Both the position numbers and the translations under genes were made by a program. Source: Rotaria sordida (taxonomy: Eukaryota). Taken from it: a stretch of DNA of 64,000 bases. The stretch spans positions 1 through 64,000 of the forward strand of contig CAJNOH010000668.1 in assembly GCA_905250005.1 (NCBI GenBank), written 5' to 3'. Positions 1,901-30,295 of the stretch are shown one piece after another (within the stretch, counting starts at the first letter, position 1; each line of letters begins with the position of its first letter). The notes below the pieces were generated by a model. It was not told the DNA's origin and ran no database searches. It saw only the letters and a list, made by a program, of their open reading frames with translations.

Positions 1901-4900
1901 ATGAAGCAAACTACGATATCTACTCCATTGCTGTCACCATTCAATGGCAAAACGATTGTACTCGAACTTGGTCGTGAAATAGGTTTCAAAGCTAAACAAG
2001 AACTTATAAATTATTTACGAGAACAAAAAGCATATATTTCATATATTCTTACAGCTAGTGTATGTTATTCTTTCATATGCTACGAACACGCTGCTATTGT
2101 TGACTATTTATTTTTTAGACTGATTATGTTTTAATCACGAATAATGTAGATAGCTACAAGACACGTCGTGCGAAACAACTTGGTTTGCCACTAGTTAATG
2201 TTGAATATGTGTATGAATATCGTCGCTTGCCGCCTGGTCAAACATCGATCGATATAAGTAAATTTATCATCAAGTCAATTGAAGATCAAGAAAATTTTAC
2301 ACAGACTGGTACAATATCCATTACAGGTATATGAATGTCAACTTTTTAAAAATCATGTTGGAGATATTTATTCATTAGGATCTCGAACAAATGCAATCAA
2401 AATCAATAAATTTGATTTAACTAAAATCAAAATATGGAATTCAGACGATATTAATTTACCTCGTTTCGATGAGTTAACTCATTGTGAAATTGGAAAATGG
2501 GCCATTTTTAAAGTACAGTTCTATTCTTTTCTAGCTCTTATTTTTTTCTTATACATCTAATGTTCGTAATAGGAAACCAATGATAATTCAAATGTGTACT
2601 TTGTTCTTGAACTTCAAGTCATTCCTGAACAATACTATGATCGAATAACGAGTGATTATCGATTACGATTTCGTTATGAAAAACAAACTATTGTTAACGA
2701 TGGACAACAGCAAAATAAAAAAGTATTGATACAATATGCATTCAGTGATGATCCAAATGAACAGCAACAATTATTTGCCACGTATTATCATCGAGTAGCT
2801 ACAATGTCACGTGTAACACGAATTCGTGAGATGTTACCTGATAAATTAGGATCAAAATTATTATTACGTGTATGTTAAACGAGAAATAGTTTTTCAACTA
2901 AAAATAATTATTTTTAGTCTTTATTTACTCATCGTATCGATACACAAATACTTGATGAGAATGCATGTCAATTAATTGAATCGATTTGGTTAGAATCAAT
3001 TGGTGATTTGAATAAAATTTTGAGCGTACCACCTGAATCAATTACTCTCAAAACAGTATATTTATCCATTTTTCTATATTTAAATTTATTTTATTCCTTA
3101 TCTATTAAATAGATTATCGAAGCTGAAGCTGCACTACTTGAATTGAAAACGACTAATGATCCTCGTGCTGCACTTCGTTTCTATTCACTTATTCCTCATC
3201 GGTCACAATATACAGTTGATCTAATAAAAAATCGTCGAGTATTAACAGAAAAAATTGATTTATGTCAAGTATGTCTATTTTGTTTAATGATTTAATTTAA
3301 TTGTTCGCGTTCGTTCAGATGCTTCGAGACATGCTTACAGTCAATGAACTAACTAATTGGAATGTTAAAGCACCGATTGAAGCGAAATATCGAGCATTGA
3401 AATGTCACATTGAAACTATTGATAATTCAACACCTGAATTTAATAGTATTGCTGAATTGATTCAATCGTCAACAGATAAGTGAGAACAATTGAAGTTTGA
3501 TTTTATAATGATAACTTTGATTTTTTTATTCATTAGTGGTAAACAAATTGTTATTCATCAAATATTCAATGTAACTAAACAAATCGATGCACTTAATTTT
3601 TGCACATCTCTATCAAATCAACGACAATTATTTCATGGATCAAAATATGCTAATTTTCTTGGAATTCTTTCACGGTAAAACATTTATTTCATTTTCTAAA
3701 TAATATTTATAGTACAATTATGTATATTCAGTGGTTTAGCAATGCCAAAAATGGTAGTTGAAGAATTAGGTGTCGTACGTACTGATATTGGTTGTCTTGG
3801 TTATGGACTTTACTTTTCTGATTCTGCTTCTACATCTTTAAAATATACAACAGCAAGTACAACACGACCTGGTAGACGATTGTTATGTATTTGCCAAGTA
3901 GCACTAGGTGAATCAGCCAATTATTATTCATTTGCACCAACTCTCGTCAAACCTCACGATGGTTTTCATAGTACACATGGAGTCAAAAGAACCGAAGAAA
4001 ACAATTCAATGTTTACCGTAGGTACATTATTAGTAAAAAGAAAGTTTTCGAGTGTCCTACGAGTTAAGAAGATGATATAGGAGAAGATTTCGTACAAGTT
4101 GAAGTAAATACGTAATGAAAATTCCTCCCAGTTTGATATATATATAGAATAGATTTGAAATAAAAATTCGACAATTGATCTCGATTTCATAATTTGTTGT
4201 GTAATTATCAAAATAGGATAATGAATATGCAATCTATCAACTTGATCAACAACGTTTACTCTACATTGTGGAAGTTTCATGGGCACCGAACGATACTCTC
4301 AATATCGAATTTGAACGATTGCCAATTATTCATCATCAACAACATGCACTAAAATTAAGTGAACATGGTAATGATAATTAAATAGTTTTTGTTAAAATGA
4401 AATTCAATTAGATTATTCTGTTACATTCTAGTTGAAGTTCCAATGACAATTGAAGATGAAGTCATTGAAATAGCCGAACAAGACTATGGTTTAATAAATC
4501 CATCATCGGGAAAACTTGTACCACTTAAATCATTTCATATTCGTGCTCAAATTGTTGATACTACAGTTGAGGTAAATATATATATCGATCATTTCTCATG
4601 AAAGTCACACTAAAATTTATCATATTTCTTTTTTTAATATGAAAAAAAAAGGTTGTTCTCTATCAAGTCTATCACAATACGAGTTCGATACCAATTGAAG
4701 CTAAATATGTATTTCCTCTTGATGAAAATTCAACTGTATGTGGTTTCGAAGCACATATCAATAATAAAATTATTAAAGGTGTTGTCAAAGAGAAAGAACA
4801 AGCTAAACAAGAATATCGAGAAGCAATCGAAAAAGGACATGGTGCTTATTTGATGCATCAAGAACAAGCTCAAGTATTCAGTGTAGCTGTTGGTAATTTA

Positions 4901-6884
4901 CCAGCAAACAATGAAGTTATTATTAAAATAACTTATGTTGCCGAATTAGAAATTGAAAATGATGAAATTATATTTCGTCTACCAGCTAAAATGGCATCAT
5001 GGCAATCGAAACAAGCAATTGAAAGTAAAGATCAATCAATCGTACGATCGATTGGTATTATTGATGAAAAAGTTGAATTCAGTTTCAAAGCATCAATTCG
5101 AATGCCATATGAAATAATCAAATTATTTTCACCAACACATCGTCTTCGACGAAAATTAACTGATTGTATAGCTATGATTGAACTTATTGATAATGTCTTA
5201 CTTGATCGAGATTTTGTTCTTTCAATAACACTTCGAAGTGCTAATCTACCTCGAATATCAATTGAAACATTATCATTGGATAATGATGACAATGGAACAA
5301 CGATAGCATCGAAAAATGATGATTCTCAAGCATGTATGCTTACATTTTATCCACGATTTGAAACATTAACAAATTCGAATGAACAAATTGAACTTATTTT
5401 TATTATTGATGTATCCAATTCAATGGATGGTAGTTATGTACAACAAGCTAAACAATTAGCTCATTTATTTCTTACGAATATGAAATTCGATGATAGAAAT
5501 ATATATTTTAATATAGTTACTTTTGGATCAGGTATATAAAATGATAATTGATAGAATTATTCTATTATTCAAATTTGAATTATTTAGATAATGATGAATG
5601 TTTTCCGATTTCAACACCAACAACTAAAGAAAATCTTGATAAAGCTAAACACTTTGTTCTGGTTGATATTTTTTTGTTTTTATTACTATTGAAATATATA
5701 TATTTAACTTATTTTAGCATTCACTTATCCATCGTGGTAATACAGATCTATCTGCTGTTCTTCATCGTTATTCACTATTACCAGCATTACCAACATCGAA
5801 ATTTGGCCGTCAATTTATTATTCTCTCTGATGGACATATTCATGATCTTCAATCGATTCTTGTTCTACTCGAACATCAATCAACTATGCGTCGAGATCGT
5901 ATATTTGCATGTTCAATTGGTAATGTTGCTAACAAACATGGTTTGAAACAATTAGTGAATGGAGCAAGTGGTGGTGGTCTAACAACTGTATTCGATTCGA
6001 ACTATCGATCAAAATGGAAAACAAAAGTATTAAATATTCTCGAACAAGTTCGACAACCATGTGTTACAAATATATCAATTAATTGGCATGGTCATGTAGA
6101 TGAACAACAAAAATTTAATATGCAAGCACCGAAAATAATTCGATCATTATTTAATGGAATGCGACTTAGTGTCTATCGATTTATACAAAATTGTCATAAG
6201 GCCACATTAACAGCTACTATCGATGGACAAGAATTTGTTACAACTGTATTTAGTAGTACAATGACAACGACTAAAGGACGTATCCTACATTGTTTAACAG
6301 CTCGAGCGATTATTGATGATTATGATAATGGATTATTACATGTAGACGAGAGCGAAAATGAACTGATGAAAGTTCAATATAAGCAAGATCTTATTGATCT
6401 AAGTATCAAACATTCAGTCGTTAGTGCATACACTAGTTTTGTTGCTATCGAAGAACGTGATGCTAAAACAGATGTAAAAACTTTTCAACCAGGTTAGTAG
6501 AAAGTTAAATAGAATGTAATTAATTGCTGTCAATATTCTACTTATCTTATAGGCGTTCGTCTTCTTGATGTTATGCTCGATCGAAATATTGACTTATTAC
6601 CATACATAGGATGGGACGGTGATGTGTCAAATTTGGATACAATTAAACAGAAATTAATCGATGAACGTATTCCACTCGAAAGTGCATCGATTCAAAGCAA
6701 AAAAGAATCGATAGTCGATATTGAAAAACTTTGTGAAAAAATTTCCTATCGAGCAGGTGGTGATGCGAAATTTGATATGATGATGACTATCATACGTACA
6801 TATCGTTATGCATTGAATGAACATGAAAAAGCAAATGAAATTGAAAATAAAATGCGAAATGGTATGTTATTCAATCATAAATAA
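1901..6884 (+). CDS. PARP4-like: Multi-exon vault poly(ADP-ribose) polymerase (PARP4/vPARP)-like gene, ~18+ short exons. Domain order: BRCT (1901-2329), WGR-like (2382-2876), PARP regulatory helical domain (2918-3480), PARP catalytic (3536-4368), VIT (4431-~4900), vWA (5380-6494), C-terminal exon (6552-6884).
   Basis: Translated exons carry recognisable motifs. BRCT: GKTIVLELG...ITNNVDSYKTRRAKQLGLPLVNVEYV. PARP catalytic: H-G-S (LFHGSKYANFLGILSR), GLAMPK...GYGLYFSDSASTS, LLCICQVALGE, and the catalytic-Glu motif DNEYAIYQ. VIT: LVPLKSFHIRAQIVDTTVEVVLYQVYHN. vWA MIDAS-like: IFIIDVSNSMDG. Exons are joined by gtaagt/gtatgt...ag introns of ~40-120 bp. Exact exon boundaries were not all resolved. 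Confidence 0.8.
3536..4368 (+). CDS. PARP catalytic-domain exons (sub-feature of the PARP4-like gene).
   Basis: Exons encoding SGKQIVIHQIFNVT...LFHGSKYANFLGILSR, GLAMPKMVVEELGVVRTDIGCLGYGLYFSDSASTSLKYT...LLCICQVALGESANYY and DNEYAIYQLDQQRLLYIVEVSW. These match the H-Y-E ADP-ribosyltransferase signature of the PARP family. Confidence 0.8.
4431..6494 (+). CDS. VIT and von Willebrand A domain exons (sub-feature of the PARP4-like gene). Includes ORFs 4850-5539 and 5886-6497.
   Basis: VIT-like segment EVPMTIEDEVIEIAEQDYGLINPSSGKLVPLKSFHIRAQIVDTTVE...VFPLDENSTVCGFEAHINNKIIKGVVKEKEQAKQEYREAIEKGHGAYL. vWA: ELIFIIDVSNSMDG...LSDGHIHD...GASGGGLTT. This is the PARP4-type architecture. Confidence 0.75.
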
Positions 6885-7466
6885 ATGTTTATAGATGTCG
6901 ATTTTGAAAAAATAAATAGATCTTAAGACTGAAATGATTAGTGCAACGACAGAAGAACGACAAACATTACAACAACGATGTCAAACTAATAATTTGATAA
7001 TTATAAGTGATGATGAGTACGTAAAAGAAAAACGAAGAAAATATTGATAAATAAAATTTCATATTTTGTTTTTTTTTTGTTTACAGTGAATCATCAGTTG
7101 ACTTCGATGGTAAGACAAGTGGTAAGTAGAGCTTTCATTATAATGTAGTAACGTTTAAAAAGTATTCCAATATGATAGAACAAATTATTGTTTAGTATGA
7201 ACATTGTATTATTCAATGAGCGATTTGACTTTCATGTTGAATTCAAGAATAAATAGGAGTTCGATTTTTTTTGGATTGAATAAAAGAAGTATCAACCATT
7301 TCCGATAATCGAATGATGTAAGCCTAATTAAGGGAGATAAAGTTCGATTTCTATCATAAAATTTCAACTTTTGGATTCCATGTATAAATAAAGCAAAGAT
7401 GTTACTGTTATTTAAATCATGATGAACACAGGAAAATTATAAAAAATCCATAATATATTTGCAAAA

Positions 7467-7484
7467 CCCACACCCACACCCACA
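7467..7484. repeat. Single C-strand telomeric block (cccacacccacacccaca), intronic/intergenic within the PARP4-like locus.
   Basis: Read directly in the sequence. Confidence 0.8.
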
Positions 7485-7713
7485 TCTTGCAATCACCTTT
7501 TCCAAAGAAATATTGATATTGCATTTTCATAGAACATGCTTGTTTGAAACTCCACTTTAAAGGATTAACAAAAACCCAACGGTTGGAAAAGATGAGACAA
7601 ATAATGTCGTCGGTACGTCAATCCAATGTTCTATGTATCATTGATAATGAAATCGAATATTTATTTTTCAGTTGGGTGAAGCACCAACTGCCGCTGACGT
7701 ACCCTCTACACCG

Positions 7714-7746
7714 TCATCATTATCATCATCATCATCATCATCATTA
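7714..7746. repeat. (TCA)n / (CAT)n microsatellite. Encodes poly-Ser in the exon frame and poly-His in an alternative frame.
   Basis: tcatcattatcatcatcatcatcatcatcattat read directly in the sequence. Confidence 0.9.
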
Positions 7747-8095
7747 TTTTCACTGGAACTTGCACAAGAGATGATAAGTAAAGGTAACGTATGAATTGCT
7801 ACACATAACAAAATTTAAGAACGTGAGCATATATATAAAACGCGAATCATTATTCATAACCACGTTGATGCCGAAAATCTGGTTTCTTTAAGATTTTTTT
7901 TTAATCTAAATTAAAAGATTTTTGAAACAATTAAACAGATTGAACTGACATTTCTATAAAAATTCATTATGAAAGTCACGATTAAAAAAAGTCCTAAATT
8001 ATATAACAATCAGTATTCATTTAGGCCCATCAGTTCTATTCAACTGTTTAGAAATTGTGAAAATATCTTATATTATTTTTCTAAAAAAATTATTT

Positions 8096-9031
8096 TTTTT
8101 GTATCATTAAGAATAGTGTCTCGAAAAAAAACAATCTAGAGGGTACTTAATTATAGAATCTTTAATATTTATGACTGAATCTCAATATTTTGATTTCATT
8201 CAAAAACTTACGTATATATAAGAGTTTAATCTCGTAGTAGAGACGCAAATACTTTTGACACATTTTGTTTTTCAAAAAGTCTATAGATTATTCTGATTTA
8301 AATATTCTGCATTTTTCTTTAAGGGAAAAAAATGACTGCACCAGGAACGCGTTCATTGGCAGCACCGGGAACGTGTTCATTGGCAGCACTATCAGATTCC
8401 GATGATGAAGGCGATGATATGGGTTTCGGCTGTTTCGATGATATACCAACAGCTTCCTACTCGGCACCTCGTAAGTTATGCAAATGTTATAAAATGCGAT
8501 CTAAAAGGAATGTTGAAGTATATATATAGTAGACATTTGGACTCACTCCTCTCCTATTGTATCTCGAGAGCATTAAGTAAAAGAAGGCCGAAGATATGTA
8601 TCTCGGGATATATATTGAATTAAATATTCAAGTTCATATCCGTATATAAAAATATTATCTCAAAAAAACAACAATCTAGAGAGTACTTAATTATACAATA
8701 TTTAATGTCAACGAGTGAACCTAAATATGTTGATTTCACTCAGAAACTTGAAACTATGCTTTGATATTTAATTTGGAAATAAGAGATCTGAATCCTGTTG
8801 TAAGGAAATAAATATTCTTGTTATACTTTGTTTTTCAAAAAGAAAAAGAAATCTATAGATTATTTAATTTTACTTCTGGTTTCAATATTTTGTATTTTTC
8901 TTTAAGGAAAGATGCGTGCACTGGAAAAGGAGTCATTGAGATTACAGCCAGAATCCGACGATGACGATGATGATAATATGTTTGACATATTCGGTGATTA
9001 TGTACCAGCAGCTTCCTGCCCAGCATCTGGT
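8096..9031 (+). repeat. Tandem duplication of an intron-plus-exon unit, ~590 bp x 2. Both copies keep an acidic exon with a gtaagt/gtgagt donor. Copy 1 also contains an internal 24-bp tandem duplication (GCACCAGGAACGCGTTCATTGGCA x2).
   Basis: 8096-8330 aligns with 8690-8912 (ctcgaaaaaaaacaatctagagggtacttaattata... vs ctcaaaaaaacaacaatctagagagtacttaattata...; ...ttttgtttttcaaaaag...tctatagattat...ttctttaag in both). The exons 8332-8472 and 8913-9031 that follow are paralogous (acidic D/E run, F-G/D, PAASxxAP). Confidence 0.8.
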
Positions 9032-12000
9032 GAGTTATGGAAATTTTTTGAAGCATGATTTAAAAGGAACGTTGAAGTATTTAACATTATTGATATACGA
9101 GTATAGATCGCATATCAATAACGACTTGCTACAATATCAGAATTCTTTTCTTATTTATATTTCGAGAGGATTATGTACAAGCAGATTGAAGAAATATTTC
9201 CCAAAGTTGTACTACCAATTGTTTTTTTCATTGATGACTAAACTTCATTCAAAAACTGATAATAAATATTCACTGTAATGTTTAATTTGAGATCCAGAGA
9301 GTTCAACATTTTTGATAATCCTTGTTTTTTAAAACATACATTGCCTAATTGCTTCTGCATATATTCCTGTTGTTCTATACTTGGAATGTAGATTTTATTT
9401 TAGAGAAGAAGCCTACACCAGAAGAGCCTTCAATGCAACAACAGTTGAAATTGGCTGAATTAGAGAATGAAGACGATGCTATGGATTGGAGCATTTTGGA
9501 CACTATGAACGAGTCCTCCTATATCGACTTTAGTAAGTTATGCATATACGTATATACAACAAAATTTTATAAGAATATCCCAATAAATATCAAAATCTCT
9601 CAAAAAATGAATTGTGGAAGCTACTAAGTAACCAACGGGATAATGGGTAAATATTAGGCTTTGACTGAACGAGACATTTTTGCAAAAAGTATGTAGAAAA
9701 CTTTATTATCATTCAGTATAGTCTATTCGCTAAATGTAGTCTAATATTAAAATTGATTTATTAGATAACTATGTTCTCTCATCATTTACAAATTGAGGTT
9801 AGTTTCAACTAGTCAACTACGATTAGTACATCGGCTAATCTTTAGAAGAATAGATGAGTGCCTAGCAATTATCAAACATTATATCTTTAGCATCCCCGTA
9901 TCATTTACTCAGCACTAAGATATTTCGGGAAAGAAATCGTTCATCATAAGGGTTTTCTAGTTCATTCTTTAAAGAACCAATTGTTTTTTTTTAAATGTCC
10001 GATACGGAGAATGATATTTTGTATATTGTCTATTTGCTGTAATGCTTTCTTTACGGATTATAGCAGTTGTATTTAGTGAAGAAGAGTGATTAATTTTTAG
10101 CACAAAAATATCAATCAAAATTGCAATTGATAACAAGTGACGCGAAACAACAGTCATTAGCGGATTATGGAGAAGCTGACTTATTTGGAGACGGCAGCGT
10201 TGGAGGCGACGATTTGGTTTCTCTCCGATTCACTGTCACCCGTGATTCTTCTTTAGCGAGTCATGATTTGACTACTACAAAGATAATTCCAGGTAATGAA
10301 GATAAATATTTTACATAATCGAATTTATTTGATTTATTTTCGAAATCTGAAGCCAAACAACTTCCAATATCTACTGTTGATAAAAACTTGGAAACGAAAA
10401 AGAGTGAGAGTACAGGTAAGATCGCTAATGGCATCAGATTTATTTCTTAATATTCTTTCCAGGATCTGTGCCTGCACCACCACCATTGCCACCAGTAAGA
10501 CTGGCCCAACAATTATCAAAATCTACTGCTATGAAACGAGCGTCTGTATTTTCCATAGTATATATAATGTAGTCATTAGTGTTTTCTGTTAGACCGTCAA
10601 CTAGTAAACAACAGTCAAGTCTAATATCGGCACAACTACCTAGACCTGAAATGTTGATTCTTCCCTCCGCTACCATCAGCCATGTCACGGCTCAAGCTCA
10701 AAGTGAGACCTGAATTTGACATACTAATGCATAATTGTCTTATATTTATTTTTATTTTTTGATATTTCTACTTTAATGAGATAAAGTCACGAACAGGAAT
10801 AATATTTTTCTTTGGGATATAACTTTAACTGTCAGAGTGATGCTTTCAATAAGACATGCCTTCACTCACTGCGCAGTTCTTATGTTGATCAAAGAGATAG
10901 CATTTTGAATTTTTCCTACAAAAGCGGACAGAAAATTAAGCATAGATTTTGCTGATGTATAGAAATCATTTTCTGTATTATCCAATACTTTTTAGGCGAA
11001 AACGATCGATGTCATCTCTCGTTTCAAAAAAAAAGACCAGGAGCATCTAGATTTTTGAATAACTCATGAAATAGATTTTCAATACTTACAGAAAAAAATT
11101 AGAAAATCAGAACTATGTTTCCAACCCGTCGTAGTTAAACGACTAGAATTGAATACTGAACTTCGGCACATTTTGTTTCTTTTTTTGTCGATGTCAAAAA
11201 TTTTAAAAAGTAATAAGCTCACCTTACAAACACAAAAAATGAATTTCCTGAATGCTTGATAAATATTTTCAATCATTTCGTAATAATATATGAGAAATCT
11301 AAAAGGAGTCGTTTTGTGAATTGAAATCCTGCTTTTTTACTTTATTTTTCTCAATAATTCTGCATGAGTCTTATTAAGATCTATTAGTTCCATTCAAAAT
11401 TGAGTCTTGCTTTCTATTTTTTCGTAGCTGCTTCATTTTCGTCTCAAAGGCTACCTGCGCCTCAATCACTGCGTCCGCCGCCGCCGCCACCACCACGACC
11501 ACAATTTATGCACCATTCAGCTGCAGTGAGAGGTAGAGGTGGGATGTCAAGGCCTTTACCACCACCAAGAGATGCTACAAAAACATCGATAGCATTTTCT
11601 GAGATGCCACCGCCTGCTGTTAATCAATCTCTTCAACAAAATTTTTCTCTACCACAATCAACTCCACGTAAGATATCTCCACATGTAATGACTTTGTATT
11701 CATTGAGTAATGAATTCGTAGTGTTTACGCCCTATTATGTGGCACCGATGGTCAACATTAACAATAATAACGCATCATTTGAGAGTAATACCATCGACAA
11801 ACAAACAGCGCTTCAGAGTAGCTCATCGCCAATATCTTTAGGTGGTTAGATAATGTAAACTATAGAATATAACTCTCGTTCTCTTTTAGATTTTAGTTTT
11901 AACGACGAATTTGTCAGCAATACATGTGACTTATTTGATGTTGCACCATTGCCTGCTTCTCGTAAGTCTCAAATAGAATGATATTCATTTTTGTGTTTGG

Positions 12001-13440
12001 TGTCATTAGATTTCTGATGAATACAATGTGGATTCATTTAGATTTGGAAACTTCTGCTGCTCCTCCTCCACCACCCCCTCCACCACCTCCTCCTCTACCA
12101 ACAACAACAGCAACAACATCATCATTTTTACTTGATAATTTCGACCAGGCTTTCGTCGGTGGTAGCAGCGTTTCAAATCAAAGTAAGACTGAAATTTTCT
12201 TTTCTTTGTATCCATATTATCCGTTGTTTGGATTAAATTTTCTCGTAGTATTGCTTTTATATATTATCTTGTTCGAACGAAAAACACAGTTGAACGTACC
12301 AAAGAAAAATAGTGTTACAAACATGTTTGCTTGTCGTGAGGATCTCGAAGTAACATTAAGTACCATAGGTTCATTTGCATGTCACCTACGTTGTTAGCCG
12401 AATATTGCAATCAAATGTTTCACTTCAAAATACAAAACACGTACATAGTGCATGTTCGATTAATTATTTATGAGATTTTGTTTATTTTTATTTATTTATT
12501 TAAAACTTCCGATATGAGCGTATGTGTAATCGTTAGTCAAATAATTAGTTGAATAGTAACCATAAAAATCAAAATCTTTGAGTATAAATGTACTTTCGAG
12601 GCTAATCTGCAGCAAGTTTGCCATTTGAACAGTCAATATCATCCAAACATAAAAAGCTATAACACGAATGATTTTTCATCAACGTCCTTTACGTTTTCAC
12701 ATGAGAAGAATTAGCAATGATGAAAACTTTTGGCGATACTATCATTAATTCATTGCCAGTTATGTACGTTAGACATATTACTTTCTAATTTGATGTTCAT
12801 TTTAGGTAGCGAATCAGCAGATCGACTCAAACGGGACGAACTCTTGGACGATATTTCAAGTTGCATTGCTCCTTCTTCGCTTTCTATAGCATCACCCAAA
12901 AAGTCATATCCAACAGTATCGCTAAAAATGAAAGCGGCAACAGATGAACCTCGTAGTAGTCGTGGTGGTTGTATGGGATCTTCAACAGCAGCAACACAGT
13001 CAGCGATAAGCACTAGTAAGTTACACTCACATGAACTTCTTGTTTATCTCGATTAATAAAACGTGAATATATGTACAATTTCAGAAGCTTCGCCACGTGG
13101 TCGTACATATGGTAAGCTATTTGAAATAACTCACTCATATATTCTACTTTTTCTTCTACAGATGAAGATAAATTGCTTGAAACGAGGTGTAGGAACAAGA
13201 TAAAAGCAAAGTTTCAAGACTTCGAAGTATGTACATTAACATGTAATTTTTTGTTCGGGAATTTCATTCATTTCTAGAAGCAAGATGATGATGATAAAAA
13301 GGCAAGTTTCTTATCTAGCGAGACAACACTGAGCTCTATAGTTGGTAAAAGAAAAAATGTCGAAACGTAAGTTTTAACATATATCAAGTAGATGAACTAC
13401 GATTAATTATTAATCATCTAAATTTAGCCTTCAATCAAAA

Positions 13441-14031
13441 ATGAAAGAAGTTCCAACATCCAACACATCTATATGTGATCTCCTTCTTCTCGATGTCTGT
13501 CCGCTTGGTTTCGGCATTGAAGATATTCATGGTCAAATGCATACACTTATTCGTCGCAATACAACAATCCCAACACGTACACAATTCTATTCAGTGTTCA
13601 CAAATGCTTATGCCTATCAAACAACAGCTACCATTCGTATATTTGAAGGTGAACATAATCTTACAAAATACAATGTATGTGATGTTCGAAATTCAACATT
13701 TTTTTTTTCGATAACTTTTTCTATTGTAGACACTCTTGGGCGAGTTTAGTCTTTCTGGTCTGACAACTAATTATGCTGCTCAGACACTCGAAATCTCTAT
13801 TCGCATGGATCTTGATGCTAATGGTATACTTCATGTTGATGCTGAAGAAGCACGTTCGGCTGCCAAAGCTTCCTTTAATTTCACACCTAATAATCAACAA
13901 AGTACAATAATTATATAACTGTTTGATATTGTAATTAAATCCTATTTATATTTATATAGGATTGACAGCAGATGATATTGCGCGACATATTACATATGTT
14001 AATAGTGACCCACGTTTTACAGCTAAATCGG
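13441..14031 (+). CDS. Hsp70 substrate-binding-domain (SBD)-like exons, at least 3. No Hsp70 ATPase/nucleotide-binding domain is detectable upstream.
   Basis: Translation LLLDVCPLGFGIEDIHGQMHTLIRRNTTIPTRTQFYSVFTNAYAYQTTATIRIFEGEHNLTKYN / TLGRVSLSGLTTNYAAQTLEISIRMDLDANGILHVDAEEARS / DRLTADDIARHITYVNSD parallels canonical Hsp70 [56 protein letters not shown]...[38 protein letters not shown]...GRLSKEEIERMV. Upstream exons (12780-13370) are low-complexity. Downstream exons to ~14970 were not assigned. Confidence 0.65.
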
Positions 14032-15198
14032 GTGAGTGTTGAAAGTGTAAATGATAGTTAATTATTATTATTATTATTTTGTAGTCTATAATCGCATACC
14101 AAATGATCCATTGTATATGGTTTGTATTATGACATATTTTTAGAGTTTGTTTGTTTACTTTTCTGATCTTTTGTTAGCTCGATGGTCAAACTGAATCTAT
14201 AATGCACAATTTTTCTGGTGAACCTATCACTTCACGTGGTAATTTATTCATTATTGTTATTGACAACAATAGTATTTGAATTTAGGTCAAACGACTAGTA
14301 TTCCACTTTTCAGTAAACTGAAAGATGTTCGATCTACTACAACCATGATTGAAGAACTTTTCAATCTTCAATCCAAAGTTGTATTATTTTGGAATTTCAT
14401 TAAACATTTATTGTTTTGTATTTAATTCGAATATAGGATGGTTCATTTACATTGAATAAAGAATTAGCTGATGTATTTCATATTGATTTTGATATTTTCC
14501 ATGGTCTTGAAAACTACTTACGTAAACAAGGTTTTAACTCATTGGGTAACGTTGAATGGTTTATTATTAACGTGTAGAAATATGAGGTCTTTGTTTTTTT
14601 AGCATTGAATATACGCAATGACATTCTTCGTTTGATCGGCACGGGCGTTATTCTTATTTGGCTTGTTCTTCAAACACAAGCATCACAACAGAATACATTT
14701 CAATTTTTATTTAACATCGAACAAATCAAAGTGAGCTGAATTTTTTTTTCGATCTTCTCATTTTCTAGATTCATTTTTTTATATCTTGAAGGTTCATCTT
14801 TGCAGCCATTTACCTGCTAATATGAGCGAACAAATAAACAAAGCGATCGAATTCTATCAACAAACAAATCAACGTAATGGTATATATTGCACGCAATTAG
14901 AATTAAGTGATTCATCATGGAACATGTTTATTCAACGTATACTTATTGGTATCGATCCCGTCGATAATTAAAAAATGACTCAGCAATGACTTGTCTGCTT
15001 TTTCAAATATTTTTTCTTTTTACACTTTTATTATCCTAACCATGAAACGTTTCGACAAAAAAAAAGAAAGTTCGAAGATATTCTTATACTACTCAATTTC
15101 ATGTAGTTGGAAGAATCTTACTTGAATTGTTTTGTCGTACGGGTAATGATTCATATCCTGTGACTGAGCTCGAAAATGTTTCTTACACATCGATGAGC

Positions 15199-15616: not shown

Positions 15617-15989
15617 ATGACTAGCAGCGGTGGCATCGGCTTTGCTATGGCACAAGCCGTGCTCATCAAGAAGCATGATCTTAGCCGCGCTGGAGGCTGC
15701 ATCATTCTGACCACCGGCGTGTCCATTGATCATTTGCCACCGGGGGTTAACCATGGATGCTGGTGTGGACGGGATCATCGTCGCACTCGTGCGCGCTCTC
15801 GCCGTGGATGTGACATCCAAGGTGCGGGTCTGCGGCGTCAGCTCCGGACCCGTGCTCACCAAACTGTGGGATAACGTCGTCCAGGAACAGACGGAGCGCC
15901 AGGCTCTCATAAACTACTATGAGACGAAGACGCTTACGGGGCGTGTGGCTAAGCCCGAAGAGACGGTCGAGGCTTATCTCACGACTTAA
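15617..15989 (+). pseudogene. GC-rich (~60% GC) fragment of a bacterial-type short-chain dehydrogenase/reductase (SDR). Truncated or internally deleted, with a frameshift near 15760.
   Basis: Frame 1: TSSGGIGFAMAQAVLIKKHDL...IILTTGVSIDHLPPGVNHG. This looks like the SDR Gly-rich TGxxxGIG region and the strand leading to the active site. Frame 2: GVDGIIVALVRALAVDVTSKVRVCGVSSGPVLTKLWDN...TKTLTGRVAKPEETVEAYL. This matches the SDR xAxKAGVxGLTRALAxDL...RVNxVSPGxVxT...GRxGxPEExAxAxxFL C-terminal half. The total is only ~124 aa against ~250 for an intact SDR. Base composition contrasts sharply with the ~30% GC flanks. Confidence 0.6.
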
Positions 15990-27129: not shown

Positions 27130-30100
27130 ATCGGTACACAAACAAGACTTCTGTTCAACTCTTCCGCTCACCTCCAACCAAACATTACTACTCGCTCTTA
27201 TCATCGAACTCCACATCACAAACAAACATCCACCAAGACACTTCTGTTCGTCCCTTTTGCTCACTTTGAACCATACCTTGCCACTCCCTCTCGTCATCGC
27301 ATACAACGTCGCAAAGGAACATTCATTATCAGACTTCTGTTCACCTAGTTTGCCAACTTCCAACCAAACGCTGCCACTCACTCTCATCATCGGGCATTAC
27401 ATCATAAATGCACATGCATAATGATACTTTTGTTCACCTTTTTTGCTCATTTCCAACTAAACGTTGTCACTCGCTCTCATTATCTAATATTACACCACAA
27501 AGGAACATTCATAATGATATTTGTGTTCACCTATTTTACTCAATTCAAACCCAACGTTGTCACTTCCACTCATCATCAAACATCACATCACAATCAAACA
27601 TTGATAAGCAGAATTCTATTCACCTTTTTTGCTCACATTGAGTCAAACATTCCCAATCACTCTCATCATCGTACATCATATCACCAACAAACATTCATAA
27701 TGATACTTTTGTTTACCTCTTTTGCTCATTTCGAACCAAACATTGCCGTTCACTTTCATCATCGAACATCACACTACAAATGAATATTACTCATAACACT
27801 TCAGTTCGCCTCTTTTGCTCACTTCGAACCAAACATTGCCATTCACTCTCATGATCGAACATCACATTACAAACGAATATTACTCATAAGACTTCAGTTC
27901 ACCTCTTTTGCTTATTTCGAACCAAACATTCCTATTCACTCTCATCATGGACCATCACATCACAATCGAATATTCATAACCAGAACTCTTTTCCCCTCTT
28001 TTACTCAATTCGACGCAAATGTTGCCACTCAGTGTCATCAACGAACATCACAGCACAACCGAACATTCATTATCAGACTTCTGTTCACCTCTTTTGCTTA
28101 CTTCAAGCCAAACGTTGCCACTCACTCTTATCATCTAACATCGCCTCACAAACGAACATTCATAAGCAGAATTCAGTTCACCTCATTTGCTCACTTCAAA
28201 CCAAACGTCACCGCTCTCTCTCATCATCGAACATCACACCATAAACGGACATTCTTCACCAGGCTTTTGTTCACCTCTTTTCCTCACTTCAAACCAAATG
28301 TTGCCACTCATTCTCATTATCGAACACCACACTACAAACGAACATTACTCAAGATACTTCCGTTCACCTCTTTTGCTCACTTAGAATCAAACCTTGTCAC
28401 TCTCTCTCATCATCGAACACCACATCACAAACGAACATTCATTATCAGAATTCTGTTCAACTAGTTTGGTCACTTGAAACCGAACGTTGTCACTCACTCT
28501 CATCATCGAACATTACATCATAAATGAACATTCATAATGATACTTCTGTCCATCTCTTTTGTTCACTTTGAATCAAACCTTGCCATTCACTCATCATGGA
28601 ACATCACATTGCAAATGAACATCCATAAAAAGGCTTCTGTTCACCTAGTTTGTTCACTTCGAATTGAACGTTGTCACTCATTCTCATCATCAAACATTAC
28701 ATCTTAAACGAACATTCATAATGATACTTTTGTTCACCTCTTTTGCTCATTTCGAACCAAACGTTGGCACTCACTCATCATCGAATATCACATCACAAAC
28801 GAACATTCAGCAATATATTTCTGTTCACCTCTTTTGCTCACTTCGAACTAAATATTGCCATTCACTCTCATCATGGAACATCACATCACAAACGAACATT
28901 CAAAAGCAGAATTTTCTTCATCTGTTTTGCTCACTTTGAACCAAACGTTGCCATTCACTGTCATCATCGAGCATCACATCGCAAACAGACATGCATAAGC
29001 AGAATTCTGTTCACCTCTTTTGCTCACTTCGAACTAAACATTGCCATCCACTCTCATCATCGAACATCACATCACAAACGATCATGCAGAAGCAGAATTC
29101 TGTTTACCTCTTTTGCTTACTTCGAGCCAAATGTTGCCACTCACTCATCATCGAATATCACATCAGAAACGAACATTCCTCAAGATACTTCTGTTCACCT
29201 AGTTTGCTCATTGCGAACCAAAGGTTGCTATTCACTCTCATCATTGAACGTCACATCACAATCGAACATTCATTATCAGAATTTTGTTCGCCTCTTTTAC
29301 TCACTCCGAACGAAACGTTTTCACTCACTCTCATCATCGAACATCACGTCACAAACGAACATTCATTATCAGATTTCTGTTCACCCCTTTTGCTCAGCCT
29401 GAACCAAACTTTGCCAGTCACTCTCATCATCGAATATCACATCATAACCAGACATTCATCACCAGACTTCTGTTCACTTCTTTTTCTCACTTCGAACCAA
29501 ATGTTGCCACTCATTGTCATCATCAAACATCACATCACAAACGAACATTCATTATCAGATTTCGGTTCACCTCTTTTACTCACTGCAAACCAAACATTGC
29601 CACTCACTCTCGTCAACGAACAAGACACCAGAAACGAAGATTCATCAATATACTTTTGTTCACTTCTTTTGCTCATTTCGAACCAAATGTTGCCACTCGC
29701 TGTGATCATCGAACATCACATCATAAACAAACATTCATGAACATACTGCTGTTCACCTTTTTTTACTCACTTCGAACCGAACGTTGTCACTCAATCTCAT
29801 CATCGAACATCACATCGCAAACGAACATTCCTTACAATACTTCTCTTCACTTCTCTTGCTCATTTCGAACCAAACATTGTCACTCACTCGCATCATCGAA
29901 AATCACGCCACAAACGAATATTACTCAAGATACTTGTATTCACCTAATTTGCTCACTTTGAATCATAGATTGCCACTCACTCATCATGTAATATCACATC
30001 ACAAACGAATATCCATAAAAAGACTTCTGTTCGCCTCTTTTGCTTGCTTCGAATGAAACCTTGCCAGTCACTCATCATCGAGCATCACATCACAAACGAA

Positions 30101-30295
30101 TATTACTCATAAGGCTTTCGCTCATCTCTTTCGCTTACTTCGAACTAAACGTTGCCATTCACTTTCAGCATCGAATATCACATCACAAACGAACATCCAT
30201 AAAAAGACTTCTGTTCACCTCTGTTGCTCAATTCGAATCAAACATTGCTACTCACTCACATCATCGAACAGTGCATCACAAAGGATTTTAACAAC
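27130..30295 (+). repeat. Tandem array of a 93-bp monomer, ~34 copies. Approximate consensus: TTCTGTTCACCTCTTTTGCTCACTTCGAACCAAACGTTGCCACTCACTCTCATCATCGAACATCACATCACAAACGAACATTCATAATCAGAC. Copies are 80-90% identical with no length variation.
   Basis: Successive occurrences of the ttcacct core fall at 27342, 27435, 27528, 27621, 27714, 27807..., exactly 93 bp apart. The array continues to ~30295. Overlapping + strand ORFs in all three frames (219, 249, 225 aa) are artefacts of the stop-poor CA-rich composition. The minus strand is closed. Confidence 0.9.

Follow-up and report, generated by a model that had tools for sequence, protein, structure and literature searches.

The exons that encode an Hsp70 substrate-binding domain (SBD) in a 64,000-nucleotide stretch of the bdelloid rotifer Rotaria sordida (the window; positions 1 to 64,000 of contig CAJNOH010000668.1, assembly GCA_905250005.1, forward strand) belong, with high confidence, to one large PARP4 (vault PARP) gene, of which the SBD is the penultimate domain. 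As modelled, the gene runs on the plus strand from 1901 to 14971. An earlier note on this DNA had described an orphan SBD without an ATPase domain or, alternatively, a chimeric or decaying Hsp70 copy. The SBD does lack its ATPase domain and is conserved in that state in other bdelloids, but inside PARP4. What had been overlooked is that the ~200 amino acids (aa) after the SBD are the MVP-interaction domain (MINT) of PARP4, and that the exons at 1901-7016 are the rest of the enzyme. Our favoured reading overall, which we consider probable, is that the PARP4-borne SBD is a lidless, nucleotide-independent peptide-binding module tethered in the vault; about the peptide-capture mechanism itself we are more doubtful.

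For comparison we refer to five further loci: L001 (Adineta steineri, CAJNOI010000034.1), L002 (Rotaria magnacalcarata), L003 (an R. sordida allele contig), L004 (a paralogous R. sordida locus), and L005 (a metagenome contig, ENA ERZ4231652, NODE_5113).

It is confirmed that three plus-strand exons encode a genuine Hsp70 SBD-beta and the first lid helix. The first (13428..13674) carries the DLLLLDV interdomain-linker motif and beta-strands 1-4, with pocket residues I, F, A, and I, and is the same in the R. sordida allele L003. The second (13730..13901) supplies beta-strands 5-8 (EISIRMDLDANGILHVDAEE), and the third (13960..14031) begins lid helix A (RLTADDIARHITYV), where the Hsp70 homology stops at position 511/599 of the Pfam profile. 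From 13428 to the stop codon at 14969-14971, the C-terminal product comprises 364 aa in nine exons, assembled with GT-AG junctions only and introns of 47-61 nt. Its residues 11-150 match Pfam HSP70 with E=1.9e-26 and 92.9 bits (cut-off 20.6), and the match spans profile positions 377-511 of 599 only, that is, the interdomain linker, SBD-beta, and the start of helix A. The earlier note had placed the domain in these exons, and all the peptides that it quoted are present; a single letter needs correction, the residue before RLTADD being Q and not D.

In a PDB search, the closest solved structures were the SBDs of BiP, HSPA2, Hsc70, and Hsp70-1A (E=1e-25 to 1e-23), followed by DnaK (~1e-20). An AlphaFold2 (AF2) model built from 54 sequences places the eight SBD strands at predicted local distance difference test (pLDDT) values of 70-89 and a helix at residues 138-150; an earlier run from 9 sequences reached pLDDT 44 and was left out of the fold search. 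Foldseek superposes the modelled SBD on isolated SBD crystal structures with a root-mean-square deviation of 1.6-2.2 A over ~140 columns. Sequence identity is 34-42% to the solved SBDs in Foldseek and 42% to the HSPA8 SBD. Chance could not account for such a likeness. Signals as to the donor paralogue are mixed: BiP is slightly ahead in the PDB search, while RNTTIPT and DANGIL are more Hsc70-like by eye.

The DLLLLDV motif occupies residues 1916-1922 of the whole-gene model and aligns with DnaK 389-394 and with DLLLLDV of Hsc70. When the domain is aligned with DnaK, numbered as in the 1DKX literature, the pocket residues I401/F426/V436/I438/I472 correspond to I/F/A/I/I and the arch residues M404/A429 to I/A, with Q433 and T437 retained. 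Most pocket and arch positions are invariant across nine rotifer copies, as is the unusual loop FTNAYAYQTTATIRIF. Relative to Hsp70, the rotifer SBD has a two-residue insertion and the loop NAYAYQTT.

The reported absence of a nucleotide-binding domain (NBD) stands up to a wider search. Three full-length Hsp70s, used as tblastn queries (E<=1) against both strands of the whole 64-kb window, matched only 13456-13885, within the SBD exons, and no NBD exons were found. Helix A is all that exists of the lid: helices B-E are absent, and a disordered connector leads from helix A to the MINT helices. The C-terminus reads ...GIDPVDN, with no EEVD/KDEL-type tail. Lacking both an NBD and a full lid, the protein is not an Hsp70, but it holds an Hsp70-derived domain. 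Without an NBD, ATP-driven allostery in cis is structurally impossible.

A missing NBD, a lid reduced to its first helix, a two-residue insertion, and the unusual NAYAYQTT loop are what one might expect of an Hsp70 pseudogene fragment, decaying or chimeric, or of an assembly artefact. We rejected both explanations, which selection, open frames, and an independent contig effectively refute. The SBD is under purifying selection. Calculated by the Nei-Gojobori method, exon by exon, the ratio of nonsynonymous to synonymous substitution rates (dN/dS) for the SBD and MINT exons, respectively, is 0.18 and 0.20 against the R. sordida paralogue L004, 0.20 and 0.23 against R. magnacalcarata L002, and 0.28 and 0.37 against A. 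steineri L001, where synonymous sites are near saturation. Neither stops nor frameshifts occur in the SBD in the window, L001, L002, L003, or L004, and its exon-intron boundaries are conserved between loci. Copies that are 50-98% identical occur in three genera, with the pocket and even the unusual loop invariant. As for an artefact, the independent R. sordida contig L003 shows 99.57% identity to the window across 3.3 kb; its nine exonic differences comprise five that are synonymous and four that are not, and none falls inside the SBD beta-domain.

Upstream, on the same strand, lies the core of a PARP4. Exons 1-2 (1901..2326) hold the start codon, an ATG at 1901, and the BRCT domain, with a collinear tblastn match from residue 1 of the A. 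ricciae protein P0198. The BRCT Pfam match is obtained on P0198 (E=7e-4) and on other PARP4 orthologues; the window model itself gives none. The exons at 2379..4367 encode the WGR, helical (HD), and ADP-ribosyltransferase (ART) domains (Pfam PARP E=5.5e-25 and PARP_reg E=2e-4 on the model). Here the H-Y-E motifs are intact (LFHGSKY, GLYFSD, and NEYAIYQ at model positions 449/489/561), and the human PARP4 catalytic fragments 8sx1/8swy match at E=1e-58 and 2e-42. Six exons at 4432..7016 then encode VIT, vWA, and the rest of the ITIH-like region (Pfam VIT E=1.5e-36, VWA E=1e-9). The open segments within 1901-7016 likewise give VIT (E=4e-33), vWA, and PARP catalytic sequence. Within the N-terminal 1,335 residues of the model, positions 205-1258 are collinear with human PARP4 189-1216 at E=3.5e-186, PARP2 coming next at 2e-20. 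The order of Pfam matches along the whole model is PARP_reg, PARP, VIT, VWA, and HSP70. On these sequence features, the gene is a bdelloid PARP4 orthologue.

The C-terminal end of the gene points the same way. After a connector of ~55 aa (14085..14333, +), the exons at 14334..14971 (+) encode an all-helical domain and the stop codon, and three lines of evidence (the Pfam family PF26156, a profile search, and hhalign) assign this domain to the MVP-interaction domain (MINT or MVP-ID). The nearest database protein to the C-terminal product is P0001 (Rotaria sordida, 98% identical), which, like other rotifer relatives, carries the precomputed Pfam entry PF26156, "PARP4 MVP-ID C-terminal domain." A word-indexed search with the C-terminal-domain alignment returned rotifers only; vertebrate PARP4 was reached by exhaustive HMMER, in which a five-copy rotifer profile was run against 1.8 billion representatives and matched 69 proteins. 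Among these were bdelloid proteins and the PARP4 C-termini of vertebrates (sevengill shark, emu, and fishes; E=5e-7 to 8e-4), along with metagenome/Logan fragments and a handful of weak matches that seem unrelated (helix-hairpin-helix, helicase, and fungal proteins). Direct comparison by hhalign of the rotifer MINT profile with human PARP4 1569-1720, the sequence of which was taken from an alignment to PDB 9BW6, gave a probability of 95% and E=3.4e-8 over 123 columns. At the MVP interface (window 14437-14968 against human 1569-1720), S1614 is kept, in GFNSL.

The connector is predicted to be disordered (pLDDT <50 at residues 153-199), yet it has conserved columns: Y/L/G of DPLYMLDG and N/F/G/E of NFSGE are invariant in all rotifer copies. 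The hydrophobic LYML core beside the SBD raised the idea of an intramolecular pseudo-substrate. This is unsupported: AF2 does not put DPLYMLDG in the cleft, although with pLDDT <50 there the model speaks neither for nor against the idea.

Taken as one gene, the plus-strand exons from 1901 to 14971 form a model of 40 exons, all GT-AG, with 2,263 aa and a single stop. It was obtained by dynamic programming and corrected by hand under the guidance of P0198 and P0228, which restored two short, real-looking exons. Three probable spurious micro-exons of the automatic chain (4069-4103, 12249-12359, and 12709-12763) were corrected using the orthologues. The order along the model is BRCT-WGR-HD-ART-VIT-vWA-linker (~570 aa)-SBD-beta and helix A-connector (~55 aa)-MINT. 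The linker (7087..13366, +) is rich in Pro, Ser, Thr, and acidic residues and is spanned by an open GT-AG chain with introns of 170-1071 nt; its exon set is uncertain, and a shorter variant of the chain that omits four linker exons is likewise open. Just 5' of the SBD, at 12890-13366, the exons are of low complexity (Ser/Thr/acidic), as the earlier note had seen. Several pieces of the linker are homologous to linkers that are joined to the SBD in other rotifer proteins: 10106-10527 (P0003 and P0011), 11409-11846 (P0005 and P0228), 11987-12136 (P0021), and 12895-13098 (P0228).

The description of the SBD as "orphan" or "stand-alone" does not survive comparison with other loci. In addition to the open chain in the window, the order and strand of the PARP4 and SBD exons are shared by three other bdelloid assemblies, A. 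steineri L001, R. magnacalcarata L002, and the R. sordida paralogue L004, and thus by Adinetidae and Philodinidae. At L001, a 1,857-aa "PARP" model ends 63 bp before a 543-aa "Hsp70" model. The split point is a scaffold gap of 10 N (9885-9894) within a Pro-rich repeat, and the frame continues across it; the apparent stand-alone "Hsp70" protein exists because this gap splits what reads as one continuous open reading frame (ORF). Fused PARP/VIT/vWA-HSP70 models, some with PF26156, are annotated in four species: P0198 in A. ricciae (2,063 aa), P0201 and P0203 in Didymodactylos carnosus, P0228 in Rotaria sp. Silwood1, and P0255 in A. vaga. For P0228, which has 89% identity, the linker corresponds to window exons 8347-8517, 11409-11666, and 12895-13098, and the SBD exons are matched as well. 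Finally, P0280 on L005 (1517-6787) is an uninterrupted ORF of 1,756 aa that reads PARP-VIT-vWA-FG-like repeats-SBD. It has part of the lid and no recognisable MINT, and a separate BRCT ORF lies upstream on L005, which could derive from an intron-poor eukaryote or a transcript.

The alternative is a separate gene with its own promoter, encoding a disordered N-terminus, the SBD, and MINT, and lying 3' of a truncated PARP-VIT-vWA gene. We consider this unlikely. It would account for the split annotations P0002-P0007, P0016, P0019, and P0135; the non-coding stretches of the window linker (9030-10100, 10703-11427, and 12183-12889) could house a promoter; and a Met right before the SBD is common, though not universal. 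However, the A. steineri split stems from an assembly gap, and most split models are flagged partial or start inside linker sequence. Fused models in four species and the single ORF of L005 also speak against it, as does the collinearity kept across Adinetidae and Philodinidae. Moreover, MINT is the ancestral C-terminus of PARP4, so that a separate gene would need fission repeated in every paralogue. We attribute the split bdelloid annotations to the repetitive linker and to fragmented assemblies. An extra short SBD-MINT isoform, transcribed from an internal promoter of the single PARP4 gene, may nevertheless be made.

How might such a protein work? Human PARP4 MINT docks onto repeats 3-5 of MVP, on the inner vault wall, and proteins fused to it are loaded into the vault (PMC12280208; PMC10450202). 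If rotifer MINT docks in the same way, the SBD beside it would be expected in the vault lumen, because MINT carries fused cargo inside; it would be displayed there on a long flexible tether, near the competent-looking PARP catalytic domain. In the absence of an NBD and of lid helices B-E, there would be neither ATP cycling nor latching, and open, fast-exchange binding is to be expected. The SBD would then be a constitutively open binder of extended hydrophobic peptide segments, possibly holdase- or decoy-like, that might recruit or retain unfolded clients or Hsp70-targeting proteins for sequestration or ADP-ribosylation.

Several points weigh against this reading and should be borne in mind. 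With regard to the gene, the linker takes six introns of 411-1071 nt, whereas the other introns of the gene are 47-80 nt, and an open chain is easy to obtain when the choice of introns is free, which makes it weak evidence when taken alone. Many automated Rotaria models give SBD-MINT as a separate protein of 300-670 aa. It is from genomic sequence that we infer, strongly, that all parts of the gene lie on one transcript. With regard to docking, two of the three highlighted human MVP-contact residues differ: K1618 is replaced by N and R1689 by the Q of IYCxQLEL, a Q that is the same in every bdelloid copy. Either rotifer MVP has changed along with this interface or docking takes another form. 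The MINT portion of the AF2 model reaches pLDDT 55-74 only, and vault docking in rotifers is assumed by analogy with the human protein. Peptide binding by the SBD, similarly, is inferred from residue conservation only.

Comparison with known systems shows how far the likenesses extend. Human PARP4/vPARP (Q9UKK3; PDB 9BW6/9BW7 and 8SX1) has the same BRCT-WGR-HD-ART-VIT-vWA-disordered linker-MVP-interaction order, the H-Y-E motifs, a homologous C-terminal domain, and the collinear ~1,050 residues described above (E=3.5e-186). Unlike the rotifer protein, in which the SBD stands ~55 residues before MINT, human and other vertebrate PARP4s are without an Hsp70-derived domain (the domain scheme in PMC10450202 lists none). 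Canonical Hsp70s (HSPA8, BiP/HSPA5, and DnaK; lid-truncated or isolated SBDs 5E85, 7A4U, and 4WV5) share with the rotifer domain DLLLLDV, the eight-stranded SBD-beta, the pocket and arch, and the start of helix A, but the rotifer SBD is without NBD, lid helices B-E, and EEVD/KDEL tail, and is embedded in an unrelated enzyme. In engineered MINT/INT cargo loading, a polypeptide directly N-terminal to MINT enters the lumen (PMC12280208), and the rotifer SBD sits in that very place; its arrangement, by contrast, is natural and conserved, and its residency in the vault is assumed by analogy.

Outside rotifers, an Hsp70 SBD or a fragment of one also stands in the post-vWA region of P0280 and of the oyster Magallana gigas protein K1PUC2 (P0299). 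The oyster protein differs in having a partial SBD (profile 417-517), which lies at its very C-terminus behind an actin-like piece, and no recognisable MINT; P0280 retains more of the lid. In the loop that leads into strand 4, all the PARP4-embedded SBDs have Q-T where canonical Hsp70s have Q-P. They also group together in a neighbour-joining tree (calculated without bootstrap), and together this hints at one old capture of the SBD. A looser parallel is offered by the integrated decoys of plant NLRs (NLR-IDs) and the "tripwire" region of NLRP1, in which pieces of host proteins stand within proteins of host-pathogen conflict. These have no sequence or structural relationship to PARP4, and the likeness is by analogy only.

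The SBD appears to be one of several such insertions. Using the window PARP4 core as a query, with Pfam and BLAST on the matches, we surveyed PARP4 orthologues and found that fragments of abundant hub proteins are frequent in those of invertebrates, always C-terminal to vWA. They occur in molluscs, an echinoderm, hemichordates, amphioxus, a jellyfish, and bdelloids (P0264-P0270, P0275, P0279, P0280, P0290, P0299, P0315, and P0335, with rotifer P0203, P0230, P0231, P0244, P0253, and P0255). The Hsp70 SBD is found in bdelloids, oyster K1PUC2, and the L005 ORF; actin residues ~1-60, including a near-perfect D-loop, in oysters, a brittle star, an acorn worm, and a jellyfish; and calmodulin in several bdelloid paralogues (including A. 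vaga P0255 and locus L004) and in Pinctada. Ubiquitin occurs in four gastropods, the C-terminal half of 14-3-3 in amphioxus, Ptychodera, and Didymodactylos, and the C-terminal tail of the ribosomal P-stalk in Aplysia, where the PARP4 linker matches Pfam Ribosomal_60s positions 68-88/88, and in some fishes. Most of the vertebrate PARP4s examined showed no hub fragments; two from fishes (P0284 and P0323) have a P-stalk-tail-like motif.

Some of these bdelloid insertions merit a closer description. At L004, four exons at 3453-4179 encode nearly a whole calmodulin, 85-96% identical to human calmodulin 2-133, with the vWA exons (1-863) on one side and the SBD exons (from 6572) on the other; in the public annotation, they form an "AIF-1/EF-hand" gene together with PARP4 linker exons. 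The order VIT-VWA-calmodulin-HSP70-MINT occurs within one model in both A. vaga P0255 and A. ricciae P0253. In P0203 (D. carnosus), residues 1202-1264 are a 14-3-3 fragment (E=1e-12, profile 155-217/223), and residues 1599-1655 give a weak Cdc37 N-terminal match (E=6e-4, below the cut-off) before a shortened SBD.

The window linker has motifs of this kind as well. The exon at 8324..8470 (+) resembles the Ala/Pro/Gly hinge and the tail of the P1/P2 stalk (APGT..AAPGT..SDSDDEGDDMGFGCFDD). Human RPLP2 residues 76-115 match 8338-8439 (GDDMGFGCFDD) by tblastn at E=0.005 within the window; the C-terminal tail of P0/P1/P2 reads SDDDMGFGLFD. Weaker copies, judged by motif resemblance, stand at 8952-9029 (DDDDDDNMFDIFGDY) and 10172-10225 (GEADLFGDG), both on the plus strand. 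Similar motifs are present in L001 (8503-8547 and 8785-8862) and L002 (6090-6128). Against the PDB, the motif gave no significant match (E=7.9), and the likeness in the window should be read as a motif resemblance with weak statistics.

These fragments bring in another explanation of the SBD, namely that it is an integrated bait or decoy. It would mimic Hsp70 for proteins of pathogens or toxins, as one unit of an array of hub mimics in the PARP4 linker, and an intruder that took the bait would be brought to the PARP in the vault. We give this a minority chance, below that of the favoured reading. Besides the recurrence of hub fragments in the PARP4 linkers of several phyla, always C-terminal to vWA, it draws on their being partial (actin ~1-60, the C-terminal half of 14-3-3, the P-stalk tail only), which epitope mimicry fits better than autonomous function. 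The P-stalk-tail mimics of the window linker and the retention of DLLLLDV with no NBD to dock on are consistent with it. Many bacterial, viral, and plant toxins act on such hubs, by binding or modifying them or by using them as activators; for those of bacteria and plants, calmodulin, 14-3-3, ubiquitin, actin, and the P-stalk serve as cofactor or target. The equivalent linker of mammalian PARP4 (exon 30) is under recurrent positive selection and has been proposed as a pathogen-recognition surface (PMC4038475). On the other side, some fused models could be annotation chimeras, the calmodulin exons of L004, for example, being a nested gene. Selection on the SBD is purifying and not diversifying, yet decoys of conserved targets would be expected to be conserved. 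In its general form, which we think equally improbable, the idea is that the linker from vWA to MINT may be an ancient modular hub-mimic array of metazoan PARP4, baiting intruders or endogenous hub partners into the vault lumen, where they would be sequestered or ADP-ribosylated. Vertebrates would have exchanged this array for a disordered exon that evolves fast.

Returning to the favoured reading, of a peptide-binding module tethered in the vault, we turn to its significance. The ribonucleoprotein particles of animal cells include few as large and as abundant as vaults, the role of which is still unclear (PMC12280208; PMC4038475). PARP4 is their sole enzymatic component, the targets of which are not established (PMC12280208). 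A maintained Hsp70 peptide-binding domain beside a vault-docking domain offers a testable idea of how clients may enter the vault. The bdelloid host is relevant here: in A. vaga, irradiation and rehydration induce several MVP genes along with many PARP genes (PMC10809525). The hub pattern, if real at the transcript level, would tie the "pathogen interface" hypothesis to identifiable, expressible binding modules, and a bait array, if true, would give the vault a concrete function in innate immunity or quality control. Our literature searches found nothing on bdelloid PARP4, or on PARP4 with an Hsp70 substrate-binding domain, and nothing relevant among the top-ranked titles and abstracts on PARP4 as a decoy or PARP4 with hub proteins. 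The PARP4-SBD architecture is thus present in public automated annotation but apparently undescribed. Annotators should also be warned that bdelloid pipelines often split the PARP4 gene, which results in apparent "orphan" SBD proteins.

Two further features of the window lie 3' of the PARP4 gene. At 15617-15989 (+), ~650-1,000 bp beyond the PARP4 stop (14971), is a relatively GC-rich segment in which two ORFs overlap in different frames. The second ORF matches the C-terminal third of short-chain dehydrogenases (SDR; adh_short_C2, E=3e-6), and the segment has the look of an SDR fragment that is broken in frame or interrupted by an intron and may be foreign in origin. Farther on, 27145-30282 consists of ~34 tandem copies of a 93-bp unit, with 76% matches and no indels. 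Over the array, GC skew is strongly negative (-0.3 to -0.49). With its period divisible by 3, the array could be a repetitive coding exon of the minus strand.

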